Notes: generated by a model from the letters alone, not told the origin. A stretch of DNA of 64,000 nucleotides from Phapecoctavirus DIJ07P2 (OZ035771.1), one strand, 5' to 3'; shown: positions 8,009 to 63,936, counted from the stretch's first letter. A program made the numbers and translations.

Positions 8009-8215
8009 ATGATCACCGCAAAACAAGAAAAAATCATTATCGACGTTGCAGCCGTTGCCGCTATCGCTATTATTGGATCTTATTATGATACCCGTTTCCC
8101 GTCGGCTATGCATGAGGTCGCCGCCGTTGCATCAGTTGGCGTACTGTTTTACGTTGGTAAACGCTATTTATCACCAATGATTAACAAGCTGACACCGTGG
8201 AAAAATAAAGGTTGA
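8009..8215 (+). CDS. small membrane protein (68 aa)
   Basis: track ORF; hydrophobic stretches. Confidence 0.55.
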   Translation: MITAKQEKIIIDVAAVAAIAIIGSYYDTRFPSAMHEVAAVASVGVLFYVGKRYLSPMINKLTPWKNKG

Positions 8216-8266
8216 TCCTGTTTTACATTATGTTATAGTTATCGTGTAGGGCGGCAATGGTGCCGC
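8212..8266 (+). promoter_or_regulatory. early promoter / 5' hairpin cassette 16
   Basis: -35 TTGATC 8212, -10 TATAGT 8234, stem GGCGGC/GCCGC. Confidence 0.5.
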
Positions 8267-9862: not shown

Positions 9863-9884
9863 CACAACAGAAGAGAAACAAATC

Positions 9885-10055
9885 ATGATCCCGACTATGT
9901 TTTATGTATCGCGCAAAGGTCACAATATTTTTTGGTCTGAAGATTTAAATGAAGCCATGACGTTTGCCCGTGATCGTGTTGCTATCGGTGGCGTTAACAT
10001 CACCGTAACCGATGAAAATGGCATTGAATACTATAACGGCGACGATGAAGAGTAA
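9885..10055 (+). CDS. hypothetical micro-protein (56 aa)
   Basis: track ORF 9801..10055 trimmed to ATG 9885. Confidence 0.5.
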   Translation: MIPTMFYVSRKGHNIFWSEDLNEAMTFARDRVAIGGVNITVTDENGIEYYNGDDEE

Positions 10056-14023: not shown

Positions 14024-14077
14024 CAGAAGGATCTGTCTTTGTCATAATCATCTCATCGAAACAGAGAGGAGAAAATC

Positions 14078-14491
14078 ATGAAAAAGTTTATTTGCACCCG
14101 TTCCACTAACAGTGATATCCTTGTAGGTAAGGTTATCAAAGGAGAACTCTTCCATGCAAACGGTAAGAAATATATTCTGCTGAAAGATTCTTTCAACGGG
14201 GAATATCCGCGCTGCACTTTCTTCAATTACAACACTCCATTTGCTTTAGAAGGAGATGCTTGGGAATGGGCTGAACTCAATCCTTGTTGTGAGGAAGAAG
14301 AATCTATGTTCTTAGGTTTAAACGTTTACCGTGTAGATTACACCATGTGCGGAGCGGAACATTCTGTTCGCGTAGAAGCCGAATCCAAACTACAAGCACC
14401 TTTCAAGGCAGGATTGACTTTGGGTCATTGTTTGGCAAACATTGAAGATGTTGTGATCCAAAGAGTTGTTTTAGAGAAAGAGGCTATTTGA
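14078..14491 (+). CDS. hypothetical protein (137 aa)
   Basis: track ORF; GAGAGGAG RBS. Confidence 0.55.
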   Translation: MKKFICTRSTNSDILVGKVIKGELFHANGKKYILLKDSFNGEYPRCTFFNYNTPFALEGDAWEWAELNPCCEEEESMFLGLNVYRVDYTMCGAEHSVRVEAESKLQAPFKAGLTLGHCLANIEDVVIQRVVLEKEAI

Positions 14492-61226: not shown

Positions 61227-61417
61227 GTGGTAACAGGGTCGTTGACTTTTGTTAAGAGGGGCTTGCACTGCGGATAGTGTTAGAGACTACTTCTTCAGAG
61301 GTTAGCTACCAAAGAGGAAAAGGAATAGTCTCGGCTCAAGAACTTTTACGCTGAAAGTTGGGCTTGGTCTTAGAGAATGTAGCGGTTCTCTACAATCGTC
61401 AGCGTCTCTGTTACCAC
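61227..61417 (+). ncRNA. candidate structured leader / ncRNA upstream of first tRNA
   Basis: perfect 10-bp terminal inverted repeat GTGGTAACAG (61227) / CTGTTACCAC (61408) enclosing ~170 nt with internal inverted repeats; no ORF. Confidence 0.3.
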
Positions 61418-61423
61418 ATTTAT

Positions 61424-61498
61424 GGCCCTGTAGCTCAATGGGAGAGCTGTCGGCTCATAACCGATAGGTAGCTGGATCGAAACCAGCCAGGGCCACCA
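61424..61498 (+). tRNA. tRNA-Met (CAT) or Ile2
   Basis: acceptor GGCCCTG/CAGGGCC, anticodon loop CTCATAA, T-arm GCTGG-ATCGAAA-CCAGC, A73, CCA encoded. Confidence 0.75.
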
Positions 61499-61500
61499 AC

Positions 61501-61575
61501 GTCTTTATGGTGTAATGGATAGCACAGGAGTCTTCTAAACTCTTAGTCAAGGTTCGATTCCTTGTAAAGACACCA
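61501..61575 (+). tRNA. tRNA-Arg (TCT)
   Basis: acceptor GTCTTTA/TAAAGAC, anticodon loop CTTCTAA, T-loop TTCGATT. Confidence 0.75.
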
Positions 61576-61771
61576 GAACATTTTAACATGAATTAGCTCA
61601 AGTGATTTGAACCCACTACTGATCATGGTGGCAGAGAATGAGGCAAGTATGTCAGACATTATAAACAAAGGCCACGGTTATATTAGAAGACATAAATGCT
61701 CGAAGAGCACTGTTCGTGGAGAACGGGGGTTGGTGGAGTCACCATTCATGGTAAAATGTTTTAAAAAACTA

Positions 61772-61800
61772 TTGACAACAAGCATTATTTTATGTTAGAT
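61772..61800 (+). promoter_or_regulatory. sigma70-like promoter for downstream tRNAs
   Basis: TTGACA 61772, 17-nt spacer, TTAGAT. Confidence 0.45.
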
Positions 61801-61809
61801 TATAAGTAT

Positions 61810-61900
61810 GGAAGGGCAAATCGACGTGGCGACGAAAACGGTCTTGAAAACCGCCGAGCTTGAAAGAGCCTTGGGAGTTCGACTCTCCCTCCTTCCGCCA
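61810..61900 (+). tRNA. tRNA-Ser (TGA)
   Basis: anticodon arm CGGTCTTGAAAACCG identical to enterobacterial tRNA-Ser(UGA); long variable arm; T-arm GGGAG-TTCGACT-CTCCC. Confidence 0.75.
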
Positions 61901-61905
61901 GATTA

Positions 61906-61991
61906 GGTAGATTGGTGAAATGGTAGCCACGACAGTTTGCTAAACTGTAGTCGGAAACGGCGTGTAGGTTCGAGTCCTACATCTACCGCCA
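61906..61991 (+). tRNA. tRNA-Ser (GCT)
   Basis: acceptor GGTAGAT/ATCTACC, anticodon loop TTGCTAA, long variable arm. Confidence 0.7.
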
Positions 61992-62121
61992 AGTTCTTTT
62001 TAATGTAGCTTACTTTAGCAGAGTAAATCTTCGGCAAGTGGCGGTAACCACTTTACCGATAACTCATAGTTAGTGGTGTGAACACTGGCTATTTTAAAAA
62101 GAATTTAAATATTAGTATTTA

Positions 62122-62209
62122 GGTGAGTTAATTCCGTAGGGGTAGCGGGGCAGACTGTAAATCTGTTATCATTGCGATTCGGGTGGTTCGACTCCATCAC
62201 TCACCACCA
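62122..62209 (+). tRNA. tRNA-Tyr (GTA)
   Basis: acceptor GGTGAGT/ACTCACC, anticodon arm GCAGA-CTGTAAA-TCTGT, long variable arm, A73. Confidence 0.7.
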
Positions 62210-62215
62210 AATTAA

Positions 62216-62301
62216 GATGAGTTGGCTGAATGGTTTAAGCGGCGGACTGTTAATCCGTGTTCGAAAGAACAATATAGGTTCGAATCCTATACTCATCGCC
62301 A
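62216..62301 (+). tRNA. type-II tRNA with Asn anticodon GTT
   Basis: acceptor GATGAGT/ACTCATC, anticodon arm GCGGA-CTGTTAA-TCCGT, 15-nt variable region, G73. Confidence 0.55.
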
Positions 62302-62308
62302 GAATTAT

Positions 62309-62385
62309 GGACTTGTAGAGTTAAGGTAAACCCCCAGTCGCCAATAGGCTTCTGGAATTGCAGGTATCGAATCCTGCCGAGTCCC
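62309..62385 (+). ncRNA. tRNA-like element without canonical anticodon arm
   Basis: acceptor-like GGACTTG/CGAGTCC and T-arm GCAGG-TATCGAAT-CCTGC, but no 5-7-5 anticodon stem-loop and no encoded CCA. Confidence 0.3.
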
Positions 62386-62391
62386 AGCATT

Positions 62392-62466
62392 GCTCCTATA
62401 GTATAATGGCTATTACAACGGTTTTGTAATCCGTGGATCTCTGTTCGATTCAGTGTGGGAGCACCA
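62392..62466 (+). tRNA. tRNA-Thr (TGT)
   Basis: acceptor GCTCCTA/TGGGAGC, anticodon loop TTTGTAA, T-loop TTCGATT, A73. Confidence 0.7.
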
Positions 62467-62741
62467 ACACAACATTAAGAGCACTGTGATTGATCGTCGT
62501 ATCCTGTGCACAAGGTCTGCTCGAAAGACAGTGTTCTTAGTATTGTGTTGATCACAAAAAGAGTCACCCGAAACTTGACCGGAGTAGGGTTGGATGGGGC
62601 AAAATGAGAAGCGGCTCTCCCATCGACAGCAACGAAGAATAATATTTGACTTTGGTTTTGTATTATTTTAAGTTAGCTTACCGAACGTAGGGCTAGTCAC
62701 CCAAAGGGATACTCGTCACTGTCCCACCTATTAAATAACTA

Positions 62742-62771
62742 TTGACATTCGATAGTAAAATGTAGTATAGT
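62742..62771 (+). promoter_or_regulatory. sigma70-like promoter for downstream tRNAs
   Basis: TTGACA 62742, 18-nt spacer, TATAGT. Confidence 0.45.
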
Positions 62772-62788
62772 AAATATATATATACAAA

Positions 62789-62865
62789 GCGTTATTAGTG
62801 TTAGCGGTTCAGCATCCCGTCCTTCCAAGTCGGTGGCATCGGTTCGAATCCGATATAACGCTCCA
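62789..62865 (+). tRNA. tRNA-Gly (TCC)
   Basis: acceptor GCGTTAT/ATAACGC, anticodon loop CTTCCAA, T-arm ATCGG-TTCGAAT-CCGAT, U73. Confidence 0.7.
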
Positions 62866-62963
62866 AATTATTTAATAAAGGGTTGCCAGAAAACTTTCTC
62901 TTTTACTAATGGTTTTCTCTTTCTCTCACACCTCTTCTGGTTGCCCTTCATTAAATGATTTAT

Positions 62964-63039
62964 TGGTTTGTAGTGTAGTCCGGTAGCACACGACACTTTG
63001 ACTGTCGTAGGTTTGGTTCAAATCCAGACAGACCAGCCA
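62964..63039 (+). tRNA. tRNA-Gln (TTG)
   Basis: anticodon arm CGACA-CTTTGAC-TGTCG, T-loop TTCAAAT, G73. Confidence 0.7.
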
Positions 63040-63083
63040 TATAACAAAGGTGAGTCACTACCTTAAGTGCGAAGTTAAAATAT

Positions 63084-63160
63084 ACAGCCTTTAGCTCAAC
63101 CTGGTAGAGTGCATCGTTTGGGGCGATGAAGTTAAAAGTTCGAATCTTTTAAGGCTGACC
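63084..63160 (+). tRNA. tRNA-Pro (TGG)
   Basis: C1:G72 acceptor CAGCCTT/AAGGCTG, anticodon arm CATCG-TTTGGGG-CGATG, T-loop TTCGAAT, A73. Confidence 0.75.
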
Positions 63161-63235
63161 AAATTACAATTCCATGCGTCTGACAAAAGGTTAGTCGGTA
63201 TAAGACGTGGGATTTAATACTTATAAGGAGGACTT

Positions 63236-63577
63236 ATGTATAAATGTAGCCATTGTGGTGAAGAAGATCCGCAAAAGTTCTACGGTCATAAGAAATCTAT
63301 TTGTGGTTATTGTCATAATAAGTATACAATAGACTTAGGACAACAGAAAAAGAAGTATGCTCGTGATAAGTTAGGTGGTAAGTGTGTTTCCTGCGGTTAC
63401 GATAAATATCAGGAAGCTTTAGATATACACCATCTTGATCCGACAATAAAAGACCGGAGTTTCGCATCCATGCGTGGGTGGTCGCTTAAGAGGATTGATA
63501 AAGAGATAGAGAACTGCATCTTACTATGTAAGAACTGTCATTCAGCTTTCCATTCTGGTCATGATATTACTTGGTAG
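63236..63577 (+). CDS. HNH endonuclease within tRNA cluster
   Basis: CSHCG...CGYCH...DIHHLDP...CKNCH; AAGGAGG RBS. Confidence 0.75.
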   Translation: MYKCSHCGEEDPQKFYGHKKSICGYCHNKYTIDLGQQKKKYARDKLGGKCVSCGYDKYQEALDIHHLDPTIKDRSFASMRGWSLKRIDKEIENCILLCKNCHSAFHSGHDITW

Positions 63578-63591
63578 TAATACTAATTAAA

Positions 63592-63665
63592 TGTTTCGTA
63601 GTTCAATGGTAGAACCCACGACTGATAATCGTGAGACACAAGTTCGATTCTTGTCGAAACAACCA
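63592..63665 (+). tRNA. tRNA-Ile (GAT)
   Basis: acceptor TGTTTCG/CGAAACA, anticodon arm CACGA-CTGATAA-TCGTG, T-loop TTCGATT, A73. Confidence 0.7.
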
Positions 63666-63667
63666 GT

Positions 63668-63737
63668 TTCCCGTTAGACTTACAGGATAAGAGATCCACA
63701 ATTTATTGTGACGCTGGTTCGAATCCAGCACGGGATA
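63668..63737 (+). ncRNA. tRNA-like element with degenerate anticodon arm
   Basis: T-arm GCTGG-TTCGAAT-CCAGC and acceptor-like TTCCCGT/ACGGGAT (1-72 mismatch), middle forms CACAA-ttta-TTGTG instead of an anticodon arm. Confidence 0.3.
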
Positions 63738-63742
63738 CATAA

Positions 63743-63821
63743 TAGCGGGATAGAGGAGTCTGGTCGTCCTCGCCAGTTTCATATGCTGGAGATCATTGGT
63801 TCAAATCCAATTCCCGCCTCC
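63743..63821 (+). tRNA. tRNA with CAT anticodon (second Met/Ile2-type)
   Basis: anticodon arm CCAGT-TTCATAT-GCTGG, T-arm ATTGG-TTCAAAT-CCAAT, A1-C72 mismatch, U73. Confidence 0.6.
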
Positions 63822-63936
63822 AAATATCGCTTGCCAGCGGTATCTTTGAAGACCTTGCCTGGTTCCTTCTAAGATGGAGGGGTGCGACTCCTTAACGCAC
63901 AATCATAATAAAACATTTCAAATTAACAGTATTTAT

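Follow-up and report, generated by a model that had tools for sequence, protein, structure and literature searches.

Introduction

In the textbook account, the long variable arms of bacterial tRNAs are confined to those for leucine, serine and tyrosine, together with that for selenocysteine. Here we describe a long-armed tRNA-Asn encoded by a phage, at positions 62216-62301 of a 64,000-nucleotide stretch of DNA from Phapecoctavirus DIJ07P2 (OZ035771.1), the whole of which is referred to below as the window. The tRNA cluster in which the gene lies (61400-63900) is 97-98% identical to those of ESCO5, ESCO13, TSP7_1 and many other phages in which the tRNAs are annotated, and the window is that of a Phapecoctavirus-like Escherichia coli myophage.

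A counterpart of this gene, the tRNA-Asn of phage T5, has been studied in connection with the host defence PARIS. The PARIS effector AriB cleaves E. coli tRNA-Asn(GUU) between positions 40 and 41 and has been modelled in contact with the anticodon stem and with positions 16-17 of the D loop, further regions of the tRNA probably being touched as well (PMC12409363). T5 tRNA-Asn contributes to neutralising PARIS/AriB and helps to rescue cells depleted of host tRNA-Asn, and the T5 versions of three tRNAs suffice to inhibit PARIS when expressed jointly; the variable arm is not mentioned in that study (PMC12409363).

That genes of this kind are tRNA-Asn genes is already known, as they are routinely annotated as such and functional data exist for the T5 tRNA. 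A full-text literature search returned no description of a long-arm tRNA-Asn, with the older T5 tRNA sequence papers lying outside its reach, so that a prior mention is possible. What appears to be undescribed in the searchable literature is the class II nature of these tRNAs, and that they are common in viruses and nearly absent from cells.

Structure of the tRNA-Asn

The gene and its parts, with lengths in nucleotides (nt) and base pairs (bp), are as follows.

62216-62301, plus strand: tRNA-Asn(GUU), class II, 86 nt including the encoded CCA, from ARAGORN, Rfam RF00005 and RNAfold, and annotated as tRNA-Asn in close relatives
62216-62222 and 62291-62297, plus strand: acceptor stem, 7 bp
62225-62240, plus strand: D arm, 3-bp stem with a 10-nt loop
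62242-62258, plus strand: anticodon arm GCGGA-CUGUUAA-UCCGU, 5-bp stem
62249-62251, plus strand: anticodon GTT, within the loop CTGTTAA
62259-62273, plus strand: variable arm, 15 nt, with stem GUUC/GAAC, a GAAA loop and three unpaired nucleotides, AAU (ARAGORN brackets)
62259-62262 paired with 62267-62270, plus strand: 4-bp stem of the variable arm
62274-62290, plus strand: T arm, 5-bp stem
62298, plus strand: discriminator G73, followed by CCA at 62299-62301

Three programs confirmed that 62216-62301 is a genuine tRNA with a long, type II variable arm. ARAGORN called the interval as an 86-nt tRNA-Asn(gtt) and not as a conventional type I fold, the Rfam tRNA model (RF00005) scored it at 62.1 bits (cut-off 29; E = 2.6e-12) and placed 12 inserted nucleotides in its variable region, and the minimum-energy structure from RNAfold was the same five-helix, type II cloverleaf that ARAGORN drew. 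The long variable region proposed in a preliminary description of this DNA is therefore upheld, as is its likeness to that of tRNA-Tyr, namely a short stem with three unpaired nucleotides on the 3' side. The class II features comprise a variable region of more than 10 nt that forms a conserved helix, together with a D stem of 3 bp and a D loop of more than usual size, and the tRNA also carries G9, G1-C72, C11-G24, A2-U71 and U3-A70. Its discriminator and anticodon are those of tRNA-Asn, and the molecule as a whole is a class II body with asparagine-type ends.

Distribution in viruses and cells

When the 86-nt gene was used as a blastn query against GenBank phages, 757 records were matched. The sequences were inspected: the alignments with T5-like, T4-like, jumbo and other phages span positions 24-77 or 6-77 of the query and include the variable arm, and long-arm tRNA-Asn(GUU) genes are present in T5, T4-like, Vequintavirinae-like and jumbo phages. 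The annotated tRNA-Asn genes of T5 (83 nt), Epseptimavirus SB9 (83 nt), Winklervirus CHI14 (81 nt) and Jiaodavirus KPV15 (82 nt) all have the GTT anticodon, G73 and a variable hairpin.

We then scanned IMG/VR for exact matches to a pattern consisting of the Asn anticodon arm, 15-26 nt and GGTTCGA, which was found at at least 120 loci. Among the loci listed, ARAGORN recognised about 86 distinct long-arm tRNA-Asn(gtt) sequences of 79-94 nt in a total of 96 distinct Asn sequences, and the long-arm loci carried a median of 10 tRNAs among the matches listed. With the gap widened to admit short-arm genes, 19 of the 120 loci listed (about 16%) were long-armed. The long-arm pattern, applied to 185,579 bacterial and archaeal species at one genome each, gave 30 sites, of which about 20 are true long-arm genes. 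The contrast between viruses and cells is very large. Most of the cellular matches lie in dense tRNA arrays (in Micromonospora, for example, with more than 30 tRNAs in 8 kb) or on contigs of metagenome-assembled genomes, and megablast of 62122-62391 against 5,426 complete E. coli genomes, comprising chromosomes, prophages and plasmids, returned no hit. On these comparisons, the window tRNA belongs to a large and almost virus-restricted family of long-arm tRNA-Asn that includes the T5 tRNA.

The main cellular home of the design is in Micromonospora and Verrucosispora, in four of whose chromosomal loci 23-36 tRNA genes occur within 8 kb, including a long-arm tRNA-Asn of 89-90 nt with U1-A72. These actinobacterial arrays presumably sit on mobile or phage-derived elements. 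A match in an Azoarcus genome was not counted as a family member, since it proved to be a tRNA-Asn of the short-arm type whose variable region contains a tandem duplication.

Other tRNAs with exchanged architectures were observed in the same material. In phage T5_ev212, whose single tRNA-Asn gene was assumed to correspond to the T5 tRNA-Asn of the PARIS study, tRNA-Thr(UGU) is 87 nt long (8134-8220), and tRNA-Leu(UAG) and tRNA-Leu(UAA) are each 77 nt long with 5-nt variable loops (9881-9957 and 14050-14126). T5 therefore has a long-arm Thr tRNA and, in the two Leu genes called, short arms, the reverse of the cellular norm. On the IMG/VR viral contigs, long arms were found in 11 of 75 distinct Thr(UGU), 6 of 61 distinct Cys(GCA) and 5 of 69 distinct Trp(CCA) tRNAs, with an arm geometry resembling that of long-arm Asn, and many of the Leu tRNAs there have short variable loops.

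Conservation and origin of the variable arm

Thirty-five distinct homologues with a 15-nt variable region could be aligned without gaps from the anticodon arm through the T arm. All four pairs of the variable stem change on both sides in this alignment; the inner three, on a par with the T stem, are paired in 97-100% of homologues and each occur as three to five types of pair. The variable-arm helix by itself is 87.1% paired, and across the whole structure 95.5% of cells are paired, as against 73% in shuffled alignments and 31-42% in slid controls. The compensatory series in the arm runs from GTTC/GAAC in the window to GAAC/GTTC in VEcB and GAGC/GCTC in Seu621, and when tuntematon, VEcB and Seu621 are compared, the acceptor, variable and T stems all show compensatory changes. 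The variable arm is a selected structure.

Overall, the window tRNA is 58% identical to the adjacent tRNA-Tyr(GUA), 59% to the phage's own Ser(GCT) and 60% to E. coli serV. In a masked-core comparison, long-arm Asn genes were not especially close to the Tyr or Ser genes that share their loci. A recent local origin from Tyr or Ser was rejected on these two grounds, the 58-60% identity to every class II tRNA and the masked-core result. Clustering of long- and short-arm Asn genes with the variable region removed put them into one mixed cluster at 70% identity, whereas at 80% long-arm genes were spread over 48 clusters, a pattern that fits a single origin as well as several. The long-arm design is older than the divergence of several virus families, and an ancient chimera of a class II core with Asn ends is a possible source.

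Amino acid identity

Asparagine identity in E. coli is conferred by the anticodon GUU together with G73, a set that can be transplanted to another tRNA (PMC9976931). The window tRNA carries G34, U35, U36 and G73, and its anticodon arm with the two preceding 5' bases, CGGCGGACTGTTAATCCGT, is identical over 19 nt to that of E. coli K-12 asnT. The ends of 101 distinct long-arm Asn tRNAs were compared with those of other classes from the same loci at positions lying outside the search pattern.

Long-arm Asn (n = 101): G73 in 98; U1-A72 in 69, C2-G71 in 45, C3-G70 in 42
Short-arm Asn (n = 87): G73 in 84; U1-A72 in 73
Tyr (n = 64): A73 in 64; G1-C72 in 59
Leu (n = 101): A73 in 101
Ser (n = 124): discriminator not diagnostic; G2-C71 in 118, A3-U70 in 108

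The end profile of the long-arm Asn tRNAs fits that of short-arm Asn and is unlike those of Tyr, Leu and Ser. All 101 long-arm homologues have the loop CTGTTAA, which is itself part of the search pattern. Away from the ends the resemblance is to class II tRNAs: the arm typically has 0-1 unpaired nucleotides, 3-4 bp, a tetraloop and 3-4 further unpaired nucleotides, as in phage Tyr tRNAs, whereas Ser tRNAs mostly have 4-7 bp and one unpaired nucleotide, and Leu tRNAs one or two unpaired nucleotides. D loops of 9-11 nt dominate in long-arm Asn, as opposed to 7-8 nt in short-arm Asn, and G9 is frequent, which is class II-like. The preliminary description asked, legitimately, which amino acid the tRNA carries; asparagine is the favoured candidate, judging from these identity elements.

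Possible function of the variable arm

The phage has a high apparent demand for asparagine, with 51.6 Asn codons per 1000 in the open reading frames of the window and a GC content of 38.6%. The host asparaginyl-tRNA synthetase (AsnRS) would charge the window tRNA with asparagine through G34, U35, U36 and G73, and the charged tRNA would read AAC and AAU, supplying asparagine decoding to an AT-rich, Asn-rich phage. Its class II shape, in turn, may be handled poorly by the tRNA-targeting nucleases of host immunity, of which AriB is an example. The window tRNA reads U36AAUC/C41 (the slash marking the AriB cut), with no substitution at positions 39-41, and as the cut-site sequence of the host is kept exactly, the source of any resistance must lie in another part of the tRNA. 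Within the region that AriB is modelled to contact, the obvious differences are a remodelled D arm and the extra helix, which emerges 3 nt from the cut on its 3' side. An extra helix leaving the core at this point could hinder the nuclease while the anticodon and G73 would still be recognised by AsnRS. In T5, both the tRNA-Asn (83 nt) and the tRNA-Thr(UGU) (87 nt) are long-armed. We infer both the asparagine charging and the role of the arm as the cause of nuclease resistance, and we lean, if not strongly, towards the two together: a phage tRNA that carries asparagine, decodes AAC and AAU, and bears an extra arm as an adaptation against host tRNA nucleases. Our confidence is higher in the asparagine identity, and lower in the shielding role, than in this joint reading.

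A wider proposal, which we offer tentatively and with some doubt, is that phages systematically switch the architectural class of their tRNAs to escape immune nucleases with synthetase identity kept, a form of shape camouflage in which Asn(GUU) and Thr(UGU), both AriB targets, gain an arm and Leu loses one, as in T5. Were this true, the long-arm tRNA-Asn would be the commonest example of a general strategy. Asparagine charging, if true, would mean that AsnRS tolerates an extra helix and would provide a natural class II tRNA accepted by this enzyme, and nuclease shielding would constitute a structural evasion route for phage tRNAs against PARIS-like defences, in addition to point substitutions within the anticodon arm. 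As the window tRNA shares the exact anticodon arm of the host, the effect of the variable arm is separable from that of local substitutions. Long-arm tRNAs may also serve as nuclease-resistant or orthogonal scaffolds.

Alternative explanations

Several observations weigh against an asparagine-charged tRNA shielded by its arm. G73 and a long arm are part of the recognition set of seryl-tRNA synthetase (SerRS), and the phage's own Ser(GCT) has a 4-bp arm with two unpaired nucleotides and a total of 15 nt, the register being shifted by one nucleotide; given an arm of equal length there, the window tRNA might be partially serylated. Class II synthetases such as AsnRS approach the tRNA from the variable-arm side, as in the complex of aspartyl-tRNA synthetase with its tRNA, so the arm is not obviously neutral for AsnRS. 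T5 tRNA-Lys evades AriB with a short arm, so that a long arm is not required for evasion. Escape from AriB has been ascribed to substitutions near the cut site, and cleavage of the tRNA-Asn of Bas34, a relative of T5, could not be excluded (PMC12409363). In counts of neighbours and of co-occurrence, long-arm Asn loci were no richer than short-arm ones in Lys(UUU), Thr(UGU) or Tyr. Finally, our frequency estimates depend on one exact-match pattern and on the matches listed, and are rough figures.

The source and the charging of the tRNA could each be read differently. The preliminary description had suggested a duplicated Tyr gene retargeted to Asn codons, considered here as a recent duplicate of the adjacent tRNA-Tyr changed by A36 to T and A73 to G. 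The two genes adjoin, their acceptor stems agree at 6 of 7 pairs, and the geometry of the variable arm is Tyr-like; the anticodon arms quoted there, GCGGA-CTGTTAA-TCCGT for Asn and GCAGA-CTGTAAA-TCTGT for Tyr, match the sequence and are similar, and the discriminators are G73 and A73 as claimed. The statement that the anticodon arms differ essentially by A36 to T is correct for position 36, but they differ also in a compensated pair, G29-C41 in Asn and A29-U41 in Tyr. We regard such a duplication as very improbable, since identity is low overall, the D arms differ and the Tyr gene has a 3-nt insertion; the anticodon arm is that of host asnT; the acceptor end of the family is Asn-type (G73, U1-A72) and not Tyr-type (A73, G1-C72); and homologues occur already in other virus families whose Tyr gene is quite different, VEcB being one case, with no general similarity between long-arm Asn genes and the Tyr genes of the same loci. 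An identity switch, in which SerRS or tyrosyl-tRNA synthetase (TyrRS) charges the tRNA wholly or partly and serine or tyrosine is placed at Asn codons, would be another reading. SerRS ignores the anticodon and uses the long arm, G73 and acceptor pairs (PMC9976931; PMC7609411), and among the features of the window tRNA are G1-C72, C11-G24, G9, a D arm resembling that of Ser tRNAs, and a variable stem of 4 bp, as short as that of the phage's Ser(GCT). At pairs 2-71 and 3-70, however, the window tRNA has A-U and U-A, where phage Ser tRNAs conserve G2-C71 and A3-U70, and its Tyr-like arm has three unpaired nucleotides instead of the single one typical of Ser, all of which argue against charging by SerRS. 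As to tyrosine, it has U35 and lacks A73 and A36, and G73 is an antideterminant for TyrRS and for leucyl-tRNA synthetase (PMC9976931), which argues against charging by either. Most members of the family have U1-A72, C2-G71 and C3-G70, like cellular tRNA-Asn, and the long-arm gene is the only tRNA-Asn of many virulent phages. In addition, overexpression of T5 tRNA-Asn improved growth under PARIS and did not harm it (PMC12409363). Misreading of Asn codons by this route consequently seems improbable.

Two further explanations concern the role of the RNA. On the first, the gene serves ordinary codon supply, and the arm is a neutral inheritance that arose once or a few times in an old lineage of phage tRNA-Asn, takes no part in evading defences, and stays folded solely because the tRNA would be impaired by an unstructured insert. 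The AT-rich, Asn-rich phage has a tRNA set suited to A/U-ending codons, the covariation shows only that the arm needs to fold, 89 of 101 long-arm Asn genes have another long-arm Asn gene as their nearest neighbour, which fits inheritance by lineage, and linkage to other defence-target tRNAs is missing. Yet phages take their tRNAs from hosts, in which tRNA-Asn is short-armed, and the long-arm share of the viral contigs listed is far above the vanishing share in cells. Very different types of acceptor and D arm occur in the family, as the 48 clusters at 80% identity indicate, and Thr(UGU), another AriB target, shows the same conversion. We consider neutral inheritance unlikely on balance, though it deserves serious weight. 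The remaining explanation is a decoy, that is, a mainly competitive, non-cleavable ligand that soaks up tRNA nucleases and is not a substrate of translation. This option was raised for overexpressed viral tRNAs by the authors of the PARIS study (PMC12409363), and the window tRNA keeps the exact host anticodon arm with the AriB site. It is nonetheless a full tRNA in its encoded CCA, conserved G73, anticodon and T loop, in a phage with many Asn codons, and a perfectly conserved GUU anticodon and discriminator would be needless for a decoy. We give this possibility little credence.

Neighbouring genes in the tRNA cluster

The tRNA-Asn lies in the gene run Ser(TGA)-Ser(GCT)-Tyr-Asn-(tRNA-like element)-Thr, and three further features were delimited nearby.

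62122-62209, plus strand: tRNA-Tyr(GUA), class II, 88 nt, with A73, an encoded CCA and a 3-nt insertion, AUU, after position 9 (Rfam and low-threshold ARAGORN)
61772-61801, plus strand: candidate promoter-like site TTGACA-18-TAGATT, upstream of the Ser(TGA)-to-Thr run (consensus scan)
62308-62388, plus strand: conserved tRNA-like element between Asn and Thr(TGT) (RNAfold z = -3.2)

The adjacent tRNA-Tyr, also noted in the preliminary description, is real though atypical. It scores 39 bits against the RF00005 cut-off of 29, with the insertion falling between position 9 and the D stem, and the gene is annotated as an 88-nt tRNA-Tyr in the close relative Dompiswa phage TSP7_1. Default ARAGORN missed it because of the insertion and called it only at a lowered threshold. 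A similarly unusual connector insertion, TAA, is found in some long-arm Asn genes of the actinobacterial arrays. Support for the promoter-like site is weak, as the consensus scan found no more such sites in the tRNA region than expected from shuffled sequence.

The tRNA-like element, for which neither ARAGORN nor Rfam made a call at 62308-62388, has a 7-bp acceptor-like stem (GGACTTG/CGAGTCC), a T arm with an 8-nt loop (GCAGG-TATCGAAT-CCTGC) and, in place of the anticodon arm, an extended hairpin with no 7-nt anticodon loop. It is found in tuntematon, in TSP7_1 and in Justusliebigvirus VEcB, where both stems show compensatory changes; a structured signal for processing, a decoy and a tRNA in decay are all conceivable.

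At the start of the run (61810-61900, plus strand) lies a Ser(TGA)-like class II tRNA with an irregular D arm, which default ARAGORN missed and which was called as tRNA-Ser(tga) at a lowered threshold; in Rfam it matched only tRNA-Sec, at 37.4 bits and under the cut-off of 47. The relative ASO2A has two Ser tRNAs annotated there. Further downstream, an open reading frame for a 113-residue HNH endonuclease (63236-63577, plus strand; Pfam PF01844, E = 1.5e-6) separates tRNA-Pro from tRNA-Ile. These two tRNAs are just 6 nt apart in TSP7_1, which suggests that a homing endonuclease has been inserted into the cluster here. A weak match to the tRNA model that separates tRNA-Ile from the second tRNA-Met (63668-63737, plus strand; 24.3 bits, cut-off 29) may be a degenerate tRNA.

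Comparison with known systems

The preliminary description called a type II scaffold with Asn identity elements unusual, which holds for cells but not for phages. The tRNA-Asn(GUU) of phage T5 (Tequintavirus; LR597659.1, 34162-34244) is a member of the same family, with 83 nt, the GUU anticodon, G73, an encoded CCA, a variable arm GUC-GAAA-GAC followed by AAC, and 87% identity to the window tRNA over positions 24-77. Unlike the window tRNA, it has a D stem of 4 bp and a D loop of 7 nt, with C16, the acceptor strand GGGUCGU, and U28-A42 beside the AriB cut.

Among cellular tRNAs, E. coli asnT shares with the window tRNA the 19-nt anticodon arm, G73, A37, the type of T loop and the AsnRS determinants. 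Where asnT has a variable loop of 5 nt, the window tRNA has an arm of 15 nt; the D stem has 4 bp in asnT and 3 bp, with a 10-nt loop, in the window tRNA, which also has G9 and G1-C72, while the acceptor strand of asnT is UCCUCUG with U1-A72. Bacterial class II tRNA-Tyr(GUA) resembles it in G34, U35, a variable stem of 3-4 bp followed by about three unpaired nucleotides, and a similar anticodon arm, but has A73 (64 of 64) and A36. Bacterial class II tRNA-Ser likewise has a long arm, G73 and G9, and its D stem, also of 3 bp, has G13 and A22 on either side as in the window tRNA; the Ser tRNAs are set apart by longer arms of 4-7 bp, one unpaired 3' nucleotide, and G2-C71 with A3-U70.

Long arms combined with the anticodon of a normally short-armed family are also found in allo-tRNAs and in the nev-tRNAs of nematodes. 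Allo-tRNAs have an 8/4 or 9/3 acceptor/T geometry, and nev-tRNAs are charged with leucine. The charging of allo-tRNAs follows Ser or Ala elements whatever the anticodon (PMC7609411). In both groups the class II body overrides what the anticodon means. The window tRNA has the canonical 7/5 geometry, and its acceptor end and discriminator agree with its anticodon family.
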